Shown piece after piece: positions 23,608 to 37,198 of a DNA stretch of 41,828 nucleotides; position 1 is the stretch's first letter; each line of letters starts with the position of its first letter. The notes beneath the pieces are model-generated. The model was not told the DNA's origin. It ran no database searches and saw only the letters and a list, made by a program, of their open reading frames with translations. The stretch comes from a virus. Taxonomy: Duplodnaviria > Heunggongvirae > Uroviricota > Caudoviricetes. The DNA lies in IMG/VR virus record IMGVR_UViG_2541047798_000006. The stretch is one strand, 5' to 3'. The position numbers and the translations under genes are program-made.

Positions 23608-24072
23608 TTATCTGAGGCATTGCTCTCGAATGTATAGCTGTGCCCCTTCAAGTTGTTTTTGCATTATTATCAGTCGCGCTCTGAGGGTGAAATAATCCCG
23701 TTCAGCGGTGTCTGCCAGTCGGGGGGAGGCTGCATTATCCACGCCGGAGGCGGTGGTGGCTTCACGCACTGACTGACAGACTGCTTTGATGTGCAACCGA
23801 CGACGACCAGCGGCAACATCATCACGCAGAGCATCATTTTCAGCTTTCGCATCAGCTAACTCCTTCGTGTATTTTGCATCGAGCGCAGCAACATCACGCT
23901 GACGCATCTGCATGTCAGTAATTGCCGCGTTCGCCAGCTTCAGTTCTCTGACATTTTTGTCGCGCTGGGCTTTGTAGGTAATGGCGTTATCACGGTAATG
24001 ATTCAGCCACAGACTAAGCGCACCACAGGCCACCAGCAGGGCAATGATGACCACGCACAGTACGCGGTTCAT
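23608..24072 (-). CDS. Rz: i-spanin Rz
   Basis: 154 aa ...[45 protein letters not shown]... Confidence 0.95.
23670..23852 (-). CDS. Rz1: o-spanin Rz1 lipoprotein, embedded in Rz
   Basis: 60 aa, lipobox VVGC, proline-rich. Confidence 0.85.
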
Positions 24073-24073
24073 T

Positions 24074-24172
24074 TCACCACCAGCGTATCTGACCGATGAA
24101 ATAACCGGAGGCCATAATCACAAACACCAGCCAGATAAGAATGAACTTCCAGGTGGATAATTTTTCAGCCAT
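24074..24172 (-). CDS. candidate 32-aa single-pass membrane peptide translationally coupled to Rz
   Basis: ATG at 24172 preceded by GGGAG SD; [32 protein letters not shown]; TGA one nt before the Rz ATG; not in the ORF track (<60 aa). Confidence 0.3.
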
Positions 24173-24247
24173 CACTCGAATCTCCCGAATCAGTTTGCTA
24201 AAATCAAACACACTTTCTCCTTTGACTTTTCCGGAGTCAGGAAACAC

Positions 24248-24280
24248 AAAACCCCGCTTGGTGCCAACAAACGGGGTTTT
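24248..24280. other. strong stem-loop in R–Rz spacer
   Basis: aaaaccccg ... cggggtttt 9-bp perfect stem, 15-nt loop. Confidence 0.5.
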
Positions 24281-24370
24281 TACTTTTATTCACTTACGTT
24301 TCGCCACTTCGCAGGATTTCATGTTATCCGCCCGCGTGGCCATGCCTTATTTTTCAGCAAAATATTCTGC

Positions 24371-24904
24371 TTATCTGTCGATACCCCAGCACGCCAGCGC
24401 GCTCTCCTGGTCACGACGGGATACCTGACCGTAGCAGTTGTTTGAACGAATACGGCAGTCTCTGCCACCGTCCTTAATCCACCAGCGAATCGCCTCACAC
24501 GCTCCCCTGCGATCACCTGCATTAATTCGTTTGTAAAACGTCGACGGGAAACACTTACCGGGACCAATGTTGTACGGACAGAATGACGCGATCCCCGCTT
24601 TCTGGGGTTCGCTCAATGGCACTTTGATGTTTTTCTCCACCCATGCCAGCGCCTTATCACGCTCAATGGCGTTGACCTGGTCGCATTTTTCCTTCGACAG
24701 TTTCATACCGGGAAAAACGGGTTTTCCATCCACCATCGTGGCCCCCCGACAGATGGTCCAGTTGCCGGAACCATCGCGGTATGCCGTTGTGTGGTTACCC
24801 TCTTTTTCGTCCAGAAACTGGTCAAGTATCTGAGGAGCAGACGCGCCTGCAGCAATCAGCGCCAGAACAGCAGCTGACAGGCCGTATTTGATTTTTACGC
24901 TCAT
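24371..24904 (-). CDS. R: phage lysozyme (GH24, T4-lysozyme fold) with N-terminal signal/SAR-like hydrophobic segment
   Basis: E-x8-D-x5-T catalytic spacing in EGNHTTAYRDGSGNWTI; N-terminal YGLSAAVLALIAAGASAP. Confidence 0.85.
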   Translation of the reverse strand: MSVKIKYGLSAAVLALIAAGASAPQILDQFLDEKEGNHTTAYRDGSGNWTICRGATMVDGKPVFPGMKLSKEKCDQVNAIERDKALAWVEKNIKVPLSEPQKAGIASFCPYNIGPGKCFPSTFYKRINAGDRRGACEAIRWWIKDGGRDCRIRSNNCYGQVSRRDQESALACWGIDR

Positions 24905-24997: not shown

Positions 24998-25258
24998 TTA
25001 TGGTATACCGCGCCTCTGAACAGGGGCGCGTTTCTGGCAACAGCTCGTCCCCTTCACATAACCCGGCAGCAACATCCAGGAAGACCTGGCTGCTGCCTCA
25101 TAAAACTCCAGCGCGGCACCTTCAACACGGTCCAGCGAGATGTCCAGGTCAAAAATTTCACCGTCAAAGCGTTTTTTGTCCCGTAACGCTAAAGTTACCG
25201 TAACTTTATTCTCAAAATTGCGGATCCCTTTCACAATCAGTTCATAGTTTTGAGTCAT
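24998..25258 (-). CDS. small protein between holin and endolysin (possibly YdfR/DUF1327-like, maybe C-terminally altered)
   Basis: 86 aa MTQNYELIVKGIRNFENKVTVTLALRDKKRFDGEIFDLD...; GGAG SD directly after the S stop; family from memory. Confidence 0.45.
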   Translation of the reverse strand: MTQNYELIVKGIRNFENKVTVTLALRDKKRFDGEIFDLDISLDRVEGAALEFYEAAARSSWMLLPGYVKGTSCCQKRAPVQRRGIP

Positions 25259-25262
25259 TGAA

Positions 25263-25478
25263 TTACTCTCCCCGTGCCGCCTTACGACGGTCCTCTCTGA
25301 TTTTGAAATACAGGTTAGTCAGATATGTCAGCAGCCCAAACAGCAGACTCCCCAGCACGCCTATTGCCGCCCACTGAGACGGGGAAACCCTGTCCAGCAA
25401 CTGCAGGAACCAGTAGCCCGTTCCCACCGCTGACGTAGTGTATGACACACCTGTTGTGATTTTTTCCATCTGGTCCAT
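25263..25478 (-). CDS. S: pinholin, phage 21 S-type, dual-start
   Basis: 71 aa [71 protein letters not shown]; two Met codons at positions 1 and 4; GGGAG SD. Confidence 0.85.
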
Positions 25479-26570: not shown

Positions 26571-26604
26571 GGAGTTTACTCACATCTGACAAAATCAATA
26601 TAAA

Positions 26605-26626
26605 CAGCCCCTCCGGAGAGGGGCTG
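26605..26626. terminator. candidate bidirectional terminator hairpin between convergent cargo ORFs
   Basis: cagcccctc-cgga-gaggggctg 9-bp perfect stem. Confidence 0.45.
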
Positions 26627-27017
26627 GAGAGTGGCGCTATGTGCCATTGCATGGTGCCGGGTGCCTCCCGGTGAATTCAGTACCAGCACCTGAATCCGCG
26701 ATTATCCCATATACCTACTCGCTGATTGCCCCACCGCACAGGGGGATTCACCATGCCAGTTTCTTTTAACAAACTCCCCGCAAACCAGACAACAGTCAAC
26801 CGCCTGAATTGTGAAGTATTTAAAAATTTCTCCCGCTAACTGATACCCGGCTAACAGTCTGGCGTTTTCTTTTTCAGCAACGGGAAAGCAACAACCACCA
26901 CACCCGCCACCAGCACACCGTCAGCCAGCACTGACATTATCCGGCTGCTGCAATGCCATTCACAAAAACAGTAAGCAATCACTTTTTACCGTAACAGGTG
27001 ATAATCCAGATATGTAT

Positions 27018-27481: not shown

Positions 27482-27558
27482 TGGCGCGCTGTACTGGATT
27501 CGAACCAGTGACCGATTGCTTAGAAGGCAATTGCTCTGTCCGGCTGAGCTAACAACGC
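27482..27558 (-). tRNA. tRNA-Arg (anticodon UCU)
   Basis: 77 nt; acceptor GCGTTGT/ACAGCGC, T-loop GGTTCGAATCC, anticodon loop CTTCTAA, 3' GCCA. Confidence 0.85.
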
Positions 27559-27659: not shown

Positions 27660-27735
27660 TGGTGGCCCTTGCTGGATTTGAACCAGCGACCTGGCGATTA
27701 TGAGTCGCTCGCTCTCACCACTGAGCTAAAGGGCC
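27660..27735 (-). tRNA. tRNA-Ile2-like (anticodon CAU; could be read as Met)
   Basis: 76 nt; closely resembles E. coli ileX from memory; anticodon loop CTCATAA. Confidence 0.85.
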
Positions 27736-30946: not shown

Positions 30947-31102
30947 TTACTCCTCAGGTTCGTAAGCTGTGAAGACAGCGACCTCCGTCTGGCCGGTTCG
31001 GATTCGTACCTCGCAGAGGTCTTTCCTCGTTACCAGTGCCGTCACTATGACGGTTAAACAGATGACGATCAGGGCGATTAACATCGCCTTTTGCTGCTTC
31101 AT
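30947..31102 (-). CDS. hok: Hok-family type I toxin (HokD/RelF-like)
   Basis: 51 aa MKQQKAMLIALIVICLTVIVTALVTRKDLCEVRIRTGQTEVAVFTAYEPEE. Confidence 0.85.
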   Translation of the reverse strand: MKQQKAMLIALIVICLTVIVTALVTRKDLCEVRIRTGQTEVAVFTAYEPEE

Positions 31103-31650
31103 AGCCTGCTTCTCCTTGCCTTTCGGCACGTAAGAGGCTAACCTACATGTGTCTAGCATGAAATTGGCCTCAGATTAATGTTAAGCGTCTTGCAGGACGC
31201 GTAATGTTAACTGGGGCTTTTCTCTATCTGCCGTTGGTGTTATGCCCGAGGCAGATAGCCTCAAGCACCCGCAGCCATTCTACTTAACTACCGTTACCTC
31301 GCCAATGTGAAATCAGTCAGAAAGGCGATCCATAAGAACAATAGCAAGACAATAAATCGCCATTACAGCCGTAATAGCCAGCGCACATTTGAGAACCAGC
31401 ACCACAACCTCCTGTATTGGACGTACACCAGTCCTGATGAATATGAGGCTGTCTCGTCAGTGATTCAATACAACTATTGGGTATAGTTTCTCTGATTTTT
31501 TCTGTGGAAATGGGGCTCAACCACTAGTCATTTAATACGCAAAGTCCGATACAAGCTAACCTTCTAGTCCGCTTTGAGCGAAAAGCGGACGTTGGAAGTT
31601 TAAAACTCGCGAACTACTCAGCGTCCATTGATGCGTATTGTGTAACGTGA

Positions 31651-37140: not shown

Positions 37141-37198
37141 TTTCTGGTGACGTTTGGCGGTATCAGTTTTACTCCGTGACTGCTCTGCCGCCCTTTTT
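37141..37198 (+). ncRNA. dicF: DicF sRNA (ftsZ-targeting)
   Basis: tttctggtgacgtttggcggtatcagttttactccgtgactgctctgccgccctttttaa matches the DicF sequence from memory. Confidence 0.8.

Follow-up and report, generated by a model that had tools for sequence, protein, structure and literature searches.

A conserved 45-codon gene between the endolysin and Rz genes of an Escherichia coli prophage, also present in other phage late operons

What is a small reading frame doing between the endolysin gene R and the spanin gene Rz of a lambdoid prophage? In phage lambda and in the K-12 prophages DLP12 and Qin the two genes overlap and leave no spacer. The locus studied here belongs to the IMG/VR record IMGVR_UViG_2541047798_000006, a stretch of 41,828 nt from an Escherichia coli prophage (Caudoviricetes), which we will call the window. 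Positions refer to its minus strand unless a plus strand is indicated. The R-Rz spacer, given as about 300 bp in a first-pass annotation made from the letters alone, measures 298 nt (R ends at 24371). That annotation saw in it an unannotated gene for a 32-aa transmembrane peptide, coupled to Rz, and took it for a possible lysis accessory protein or a remnant. We find a conserved gene of 45 codons, in a cassette which also occurs at several other sites of phage late operons.

We will start with the reading frame. The signals described for the short frame (24074..24172) are all present: its ATG (24172-24170) has a GGGAG motif 9 nt upstream (24186-24182), both read on the minus strand, and a single base, 24073, separates its TGA (24076-24074) from the ATG of Rz (24072-24070). 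We call this motif SD2, for Shine-Dalgarno sequence; it is formed by codons Arg9-Glu10 (CGG GAG) of the longer gene. The frame is open upstream of the ATG, and the main product is 45 aa long, not 32. It starts with a GTG at 24211, 5 nt behind the ribosome-binding site AAGGAG (SD1, 24217..24222), and ends at the same TGA, so that the coding sequence occupies 24074..24211. The product consists of MFDFSKLIREIRV followed by the 32 aa of the short frame, which is the 3′ two-thirds of the gene and may give a second translation product starting at Met14. In 17 diverse copies the homologous start is GTG (14 copies) or TTG (3), never ATG, and it always lies behind a ribosome-binding site; the protein has 45 aa from GTG or TTG in 15 of these loci and 47-48 aa in the other two. 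A non-ATG start (GTG or TTG) is found in 18 of 20 DNA copies, and two more distant copies have ATG. Picking the first ATG mis-calls such a gene.

A frame of 32 codons is by itself within what is expected by chance; we judge the gene to be real because it is conserved. DNA copies were found in Escherichia, Salmonella, Citrobacter, Edwardsiella, Yersinia, Pantoea, Brenneria, Sodalis, Izhakiella, Trabulsiella and Symbiopectobacterium, in a Pseudomonas phage and in an Azoarcus metagenome-assembled genome. A search of 5.8 billion proteins gave 36 relatives, among them those of E. fergusonii and Salmonella, which have 45 aa and are 82% and 67% identical; another 41 matches, of 32-86 aa, came from a profile search of 1.84 billion representatives. 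The 80 highest-scoring viral contigs all carry an intact, identical protein and thus give no information on variation. In 15 copies which span the genera the median pairwise ratio of nonsynonymous to synonymous substitution rates (dN/dS) is 0.15, with dS mostly above 1. The uncorrected ratio of nonsynonymous to synonymous differences (pN/pS) has the value 0.31 for the coding frame and is higher, at 0.76 and 1.81, for the two others. As judged from these substitution patterns, purifying selection over all 45 codons is demonstrated. Together with the conservation, the dN/dS value identifies a genuine gene and disposes of the idea of a remnant. When 24 members are aligned, the most distant at 31% identity, the best-conserved block is found at the N-terminus, SK-IRE-R-M-EKL-W(K/R)F. 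Residues E10, M14 and F23 are nearly or fully invariant, and the C-terminal RWW is absent from some members. The first 13 residues, which lie outside the 32-aa frame, would be part of the functional core because they fall within this best-conserved block.

The description of the gene as unannotated is right for most copies, with some exceptions. The NCBI Prokaryotic Genome Annotation Pipeline (PGAP) calls the identical 45-aa coding sequence in some identical E. coli loci, as WP_000459345.1 ('hypothetical protein' or 'phage protein'); it is annotated, for example, at the identical locus of E. coli AR_0017, and in about 5 of 17 full-length rows sampled among complete E. coli genomes. The family also has a profile without assigned function, PHROG 6632, which matches with E=1.2e-29, residues 1-45 on positions 1-45 of its 45 positions. 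Pfam, NCBIfam and PADLOC have no family for the 45-aa peptide.

The product has a single hydrophobic helix, as the earlier description also had it; this transmembrane helix of 18 residues (23-40) is followed by a tail of only five residues, QIRWW. The AlphaFold model (predicted local distance difference test score, pLDDT, 85) has a helix at 4-17, a break at 18-19 and a second helix at 20-44. Five Lys/Arg and three Asp/Glu precede the hydrophobic stretch F23-G40 and one Arg follows it. Because of this distribution of charges the positive-inside rule predicts a single-pass inner-membrane protein with its N-terminus inside and its C-terminus outside; the N-terminal helix, which is basic and amphipathic, is predicted to be on the cytoplasmic side.

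The genomic surroundings of the gene are very variable. The gene and its leader form a cassette of about 210 bp, present in several unrelated genomic contexts from Escherichia to Pseudomonas and Azoarcus. One of them is the slot between endolysin and i-spanin, where it is found with five endolysin types and two spanin families (PF03245 and DUF2514). The cassette of the E. coli window is surrounded by a P21-type holin, a signal-anchored lysozyme (PF00959) and a PF03245 Rz; in Salmonella the lysis cassette around the gene has an HP1-type holin, a lysozyme and a PF03245 Rz; in E. fergusonii it has a holin_8, a GH19 endolysin and a DUF2514 spanin. The Edwardsiella copy accompanies a GH108 endolysin and the Citrobacter copy a phrog_873 endolysin; Salmonella phage SPN3UB has the cassette in the same slot. 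A second site, between V and W of the baseplate genes, is occupied in two phages, Rac-SA53 and the Salmonella phage SEN34, and in Yersinia, Pantoea and Serratia. Tail-fibre or tail genes precede the cassette in Sodalis, Izhakiella, Brenneria and Symbiopectobacterium; in Pseudomonas phage YMC11/02/R656 it lies in a moron-rich tail region and in the Azoarcus genome in a structural region. In the R-Rz spacer, and between V and W of Rac-SA53 and SEN34, it is an extra gene between two genes which lie side by side in related phages. A distant member, P0056 (L113:1418-4124), stands alone, about 600 bp from its neighbours, and keeps both hairpins of the leader. It is surrounded by closely packed toxin-antitoxin genes of ParE/RelB, YafQ/RelB and HicB type, beside a terminase gene.

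From these contexts the element is a mobile cassette, spliced into intergenic sites of phage late operons, and no fixture of lysis cassettes. The suggested role as a lysis accessory is not established, since other copies of the cassette have baseplate, tail or toxin-antitoxin genes as neighbours, and since lambda, DLP12 and Qin do without it. It is frequent: taken from the hairpin to the stop, it is covered to at least 80% in 903 of 5426 complete E. coli genomes, where it is mostly unannotated. UTI89 is one of them, with a copy at NC_007946.1:1407869-1408087 which is 99.5% identical to that of the window. It is also carried by 53 phage records, mostly of Shiga toxin (Stx) phages, H-19B included.

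The leader of the gene contains two hairpins. Hairpin 1 (24248..24280) has a G+C-rich stem of 13 bp flanked by an A-tract and a T-tract, which makes it terminator-like on both strands. It shows compensatory changes at 7 of 12 pairs and is kept in every context, including the stand-alone copy, which has nothing phage-like upstream of it. In hairpin 2 (24216..24244) a U/C-rich tract which follows hairpin 1 pairs with SD1, with TGACT/AGTCA as inner stem. The same architecture, with SD1 paired, appears in the local folds of 16 of the 17 leaders. Other lineages have the inner stems CCTTG/CAAGG, CGTTA/TAACG, CATG/CATG and CCTTCTG/CAGAAGG, and it is only these compensatory stems which speak for hairpin 2, because in energy it does no better than shuffled sequence. 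A sense promoter-like site was detected neither within the cassette, nor between hairpin 1 and the start, nor just upstream. Rfam at gathering thresholds gave nothing in the R-Rz spacer. At relaxed thresholds there were sub-threshold matches to the rimP leader and to RsmY; they are driven by the terminator and were discarded.

The beginning of the gene shows an unusual lack of synonymous variation. Synonymous divergence (pS) is 0.31 in codons 2-13 and 0.75 downstream. Asp3 is always GAT, codon 4 is NTT, Ser5 is AGC, Leu11 is TTG and Arg12 is CGA, while Arg9 is CGG or AGG; codons 7, 8 and 13 are free to vary. Two overlapping signals would explain the freezing of codons 3-12. One of them is the internal start, SD2 with Met14. 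The ATG/GGGAG pair proposed for the short frame is kept in 18 of the 20 DNA copies, the exceptions being one copy with only GAG and another with its first Met at codon 12; in proteins Met14 is at least 90% conserved. A purine-rich motif like SD2 persists where the residues differ, as CAGGGG, AAGGAA or ATGGAG, and as GAGGTG in the Pseudomonas phage. In Serratia sp. Ag1 (L025:2990-3114) a natural deletion has removed both hairpins and the first 13 codons and has joined the stop of baseplate gene V directly to the internal Met, so that only the 32-aa form is left.

The other candidate signal is on the opposite strand. The reverse complement of codons 3-6 (GAT TTT AGC A) is an extended -10-like motif, TGCTAAAAT (24196..24204, plus strand). 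Its pattern TGnTAnnnT is found in all 20 DNA copies, including those which encode N-F-I-K, N-S-S-K or H-I-S-R instead of D-F-S-K. A transcript from TGCTAAAAT would start opposite the GTG, cross SD1 and hairpin 2 and end at hairpin 1, the upstream A-tract of which would give it a U-tail. The predicted cis-antisense RNA, of about 80 nt, would occupy 24211..24293 of the plus strand, over GTG, SD1 and hairpin 2, and end with hairpin 1 and UUUUUACUUUUAUU. Taken as 86 nt, it has a predicted folding energy of -23.2 kcal/mol (z -3.1), with the terminator at its end. Another antisense promoter-like site within the frame (24089-24118, CTGACC-18-CATAAT) was dropped, as it is unconserved in the homologues. 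Identity of the hairpin/antisense element with PasB was considered and rejected: PasB maps to the I-J spacer of prophage PP6 of E2348/69 and its sequence is unrelated. PasB is a published Hfq-dependent small RNA of 83 nt, in antisense orientation, in a 240-bp insertion between the tail genes I and J (L111:1757-1996). It gives a further example of a late structural operon into which a small regulatory element has been inserted.

At its 3′ end the gene is very close to Rz. The junction TGA-A-ATG (24070..24076) reads TGA|A|ATG in 79 of the 80 highest-scoring viral contigs and TGA|T|ATG in one. The form TGA-N-ATG is found in the lysis cassettes of E. coli, Salmonella, Citrobacter and E. fergusonii, with TAA-N-ATG in SPN3UB; only the draft contig of Edwardsiella departs from this, and there the 5′ end of Rz looks disrupted. 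Lambda has an ATGA overlap of R and Rz in place of this junction. Translational coupling of the 45-aa gene to Rz is plausible from this arrangement. Rz itself is a mosaic: compared with lambda (L110:867-1328) it is nearly identical from about codon 24 over some 45 further codons aligned, and its first 23 or so codons, which code for the transmembrane segment, are unrelated to lambda Rz. Because the 5′ end differs while the rest matches lambda, the different N-terminus of Rz came with the insertion in this lineage.

Other small frames are also found in this spacer. The R-Rz spacers of other prophages contain from one to four other small open reading frames (ORFs), each with a single helix, which belong to phrog_4493, 4906, 1115 and 12997. 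They are like the cassette protein in position, size and single transmembrane helix, and differ from it in their PHROG families. E. coli strain 2/0 (L117:1560-2062) has four ORFs in tandem, of phrog_6632, 4906, 1115 and 4493. In O157:H7 F7508 (L116:1560-1757) the same hairpin and leader are followed by an ORF cut to 8 codons and then by a 37-aa ORF of phrog_4493. Prophage Sp15 of Sakai (L112:7749-8464) lacks the cassette and has in its spacer the antirepressor gene ant and ECs_5741 (phrog_4906). The phrog_4493 ORFs of F7508 and strain 2/0 end in IRWW, which is followed by the TGA-N-ATG of Rz. In E. fergusonii (L010:3736-3908) there is a 50-aa ORF of phrog_12997, which ends in WVKWW followed by TGAtATG; it follows the GH19 endolysin gene and precedes the cassette with its hairpin 1. 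We considered it as a possible paralogue of the cassette protein and rejected this, since hhalign aligns only the last five residues.

The upstream part of the spacer (24281..24370) is common to Sakai Sp15, O157 F7508 and strain 2/0 and is partly matched in Salmonella and Edwardsiella. This sequence, which separates hairpin 1 from the R stop, is kept across spacer variants (24281-24370 in the window, L017:2878-2930, L006:3860-3925). On the minus strand of the window it contains only a 17-codon ATG frame, MATRADNMKSCEVAKRK. In Edwardsiella the stretch before hairpin 1 reads ...VRWW-DD-AKSC in frame, like the scar of an upstream paralogue ending in RWW.

How does this gene compare with known systems? 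Its protein belongs to a catalogued, uncharacterised family; it is no holin by the criteria tested, and it fits a type I toxin or a moron only in part. As to holins, there is no Pfam match above noise, only PHROG 6632, and the holin of the window is a separate P21-type gene. Dual-start holin genes, such as lambda S107/S105 with its sdi stem-loop or P21 S71/S68, have in common with the cassette gene a small membrane protein, a place in the late operon, two in-frame starts each with a ribosome-binding site, and an RNA stem at the upstream start. Their starts, however, are 2-3 codons apart, while here the distance is 13 codons. The cassette gene also differs from holins by its one transmembrane helix, by a C-terminal tail which is only QIRWW, by its position downstream of the endolysin and by its occurrence outside lysis cassettes. 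Type I toxin-antitoxin loci (hok/sok, ibs/sib, ldr/rdl), lambda OOP and P22 sar share with it a hydrophobic peptide of less than 60 aa. Similar to type I loci would also be the predicted short antisense RNA over the translation start, the promoter of which would lie early in the ORF and which would stop at an intrinsic terminator of its own; one copy, moreover, sits among toxin-antitoxin genes. The cassette differs from such loci in that no toxin promoter and no Rfam family match were found for it; the real sok of the window is found elsewhere, at 31097-31270. Morons such as HK97 gp15 and lambda bor/lom are also inserted between late genes at variable sites and have small membrane products, but classical morons have their own promoter and a downstream terminator, whereas in the cassette a promoter is absent and the terminator-like hairpin precedes the gene.

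We read the locus as a throttled, late-made small inner-membrane protein in a mobile cassette, possibly gated by an antisense RNA, and give this reading slightly better than an even chance. Having no promoter of its own, the gene would be transcribed only when the late-operon polymerase, here Q-antiterminated, reads through hairpin 1. The 45-aa form would be throttled by its weak start codon and by the pairing of SD1. An antisense RNA of about 80 nt would probably cover the translation start, in a way similar to type I toxin-antitoxin loci or lambda OOP, and two products, of 45 and 32 aa, may arise, as in dual-start holins. Ribosomes which end at TGA 24076-24074 probably restart at the Rz ATG, so that the junction would replace the lambda-type overlap, and TGGTGGTGA would add an element similar to a ribosome-binding site for Rz. 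The most likely role of the protein would be that of a potent membrane-active late effector at low dose, a guess made because layered repression is typical of potent membrane-active peptides. It could tune the energisation of the membrane and hence the timing of lysis. Possible targets in the window prophage would be the triggering of the pinholin, the release of the signal-anchored lysozyme, or the function of the spanins.

Several facts weigh against this reading. Only position links the protein to lysis, and many lambdoid phages do without the gene; no similarity to any holin, toxin or defence family appears in Pfam, PHROG, NCBIfam or PADLOC. At -6 to -9 kcal/mol hairpin 2 is weak, and it does not surpass shuffled sequences (mean z -0.66). 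A terminator-like hairpin in baseplate operons without Q-type antitermination is hard to square with efficient termination. The antisense promoter has a poor -35 (TCGAAT), its TGCTAAAAT site is missed by a consensus promoter scan, and codons 3-6 might be frozen for another reason, initiation at the GTG. Met14 may be structural; the distant protein P0059 does not have it, and in one distant copy the second ribosome-binding site is weak. For this gene the literature and published data searched gave no transcription start, no ribosome-profiling signal and no peptide. The supplement of a paper on ribosome profiling of small ORFs in Sakai has no matching sequence; the Hfq-crosslinking table for Sakai of Tree et al. 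is uninformative, since Sakai Sp15 lacks the cassette. Full-text searches with peptide fragments and for a small gene between R and Rz gave no description. In the sources searched the regulatory anatomy and the interchangeable small membrane ORFs of the R-Rz slot are found nowhere; the protein family itself is already catalogued.

A wider proposal seems unlikely to us. It considers the cassette an undescribed regulatory module: a membrane peptide with two isoforms, without promoter, would be held back by the hairpin, the occluded SD1 and the antisense RNA until late transcription floods the antisense, and the R-Rz spacer would be a slot for interchangeable single-helix modulators (PHROGs 6632, 4493, 4906, 1115 and 12997) which set lysis timing or spanin activity. 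We assign a similarly low probability to a dedicated lysis accessory, translated together with Rz, which might be a timer similar to an antiholin or holin, a helper of the membrane-tethered endolysin in the manner of a releasin (phage Mu gp25 type), or a protein that pairs with the transmembrane helix of Rz. Five lysis cassettes that differ in endolysin and holin all have the gene in the slot between endolysin and i-spanin, with a single base before the spanin start except in Edwardsiella; in E. coli it travels with a distinct transmembrane-coding 5′ end of Rz; and the other single-helix ORFs suggest that the slot favours such genes. Its dual starts and structured leader also recall what is established for the holin genes of lambda and P21. 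The occurrence of the gene at the baseplate, in tail regions and among toxin-antitoxin genes argues against such a dedicated role, as do the lack of a charged C-terminal tail and of a holin family match, and the absence of the gene from lambda, DLP12 and Qin. Moreover its partner endolysins include soluble types without signal-anchor (GH19, GH108), so it is not specific to membrane-tethered endolysins, which speaks indirectly against a releasin.

A moron for lysogenic conversion would be an inner-membrane protein made by the prophage, active in superinfection exclusion like HK97 gp15 or in modulating a host membrane protein. Insertion between conserved late genes at several sites is typical of morons, exclusion factors are often small single-helix membrane proteins, and the gene is widespread in prophages. 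Yet with no promoter inside the cassette, its sole terminator-like element upstream and none downstream, and a weak start with an occluded SD1, steady expression in lysogens is difficult to imagine, and there is no PADLOC match; we find this origin of the gene rather improbable. Finally the peptide itself could be irrelevant, either as a translational relay which brings ribosomes to Rz after the R/Rz overlap was broken, or as a decaying remnant. It is true that a single base separates the stop from the Rz ATG, that in lambda-type cassettes the ATGA overlap couples Rz to R, and that TGGTGGTGA looks like a ribosome-binding site for Rz. This explanation is contradicted by dN/dS, with strong purifying selection on the amino acids while synonymous sites are saturated; the protein is conserved at 31-67% identity across orders, it is intact and identical in all 80 highest-scoring viral contigs, and the gene is kept where no Rz follows. 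It can hardly be credited.

The neighbouring genes complete the picture of the lysis region. Rz (i-spanin, PF03245) extends over 23608..24072 and contains the embedded gene Rz1 (o-spanin lipoprotein) at 23670..23852. The lysozyme gene R (PF00959) is at 24371..24904; the Gly/Ala-rich hydrophobic stretch at the N-terminus of its product resembles the membrane-tethered signal-anchor-release (SAR) type. A P21-type class II holin of 71 aa is encoded at 25263..25478. It begins with MDQMEK..., a possible Met1/Met4 dual start like S21 71/68. Between the holin and R there is a DUF1327 (YdfR-like) gene at 24998-25258, which matches only positions 1-60 of the 93 in the profile; in one assembly, the R-Rz spacer of which is identical to that of the window, PGAP marks it as an incomplete pseudogene. 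Elsewhere in the prophage Rfam gives matches at gathering score for the small RNA STnc100 (26596-26785), upstream of the lysis genes, for the sok antitoxin RNA mentioned above, hence a hok/sok locus, for DicF (37142-37193, plus strand) and for two tRNA genes (27485-27558 and 27663-27735).

The cassette is thus present in about one in six complete E. coli genomes and in many Shiga-toxin phages, usually without annotation, and one of its sites lies within the best-studied lysis architecture, S-R-Rz. The overlap of several signals, namely the coding sequence, the internal start and, if it is true, the antisense promoter, may be the cause of its frozen synonymous sites. Provided that the antisense RNA is real, the cassette would be a compact gene gated by read-through of the late operon. 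Should the protein modulate the energisation of the membrane or the function of the spanins, it would be a new component of the lambdoid lysis pathway and could affect the timing of toxin release from Stx phages.

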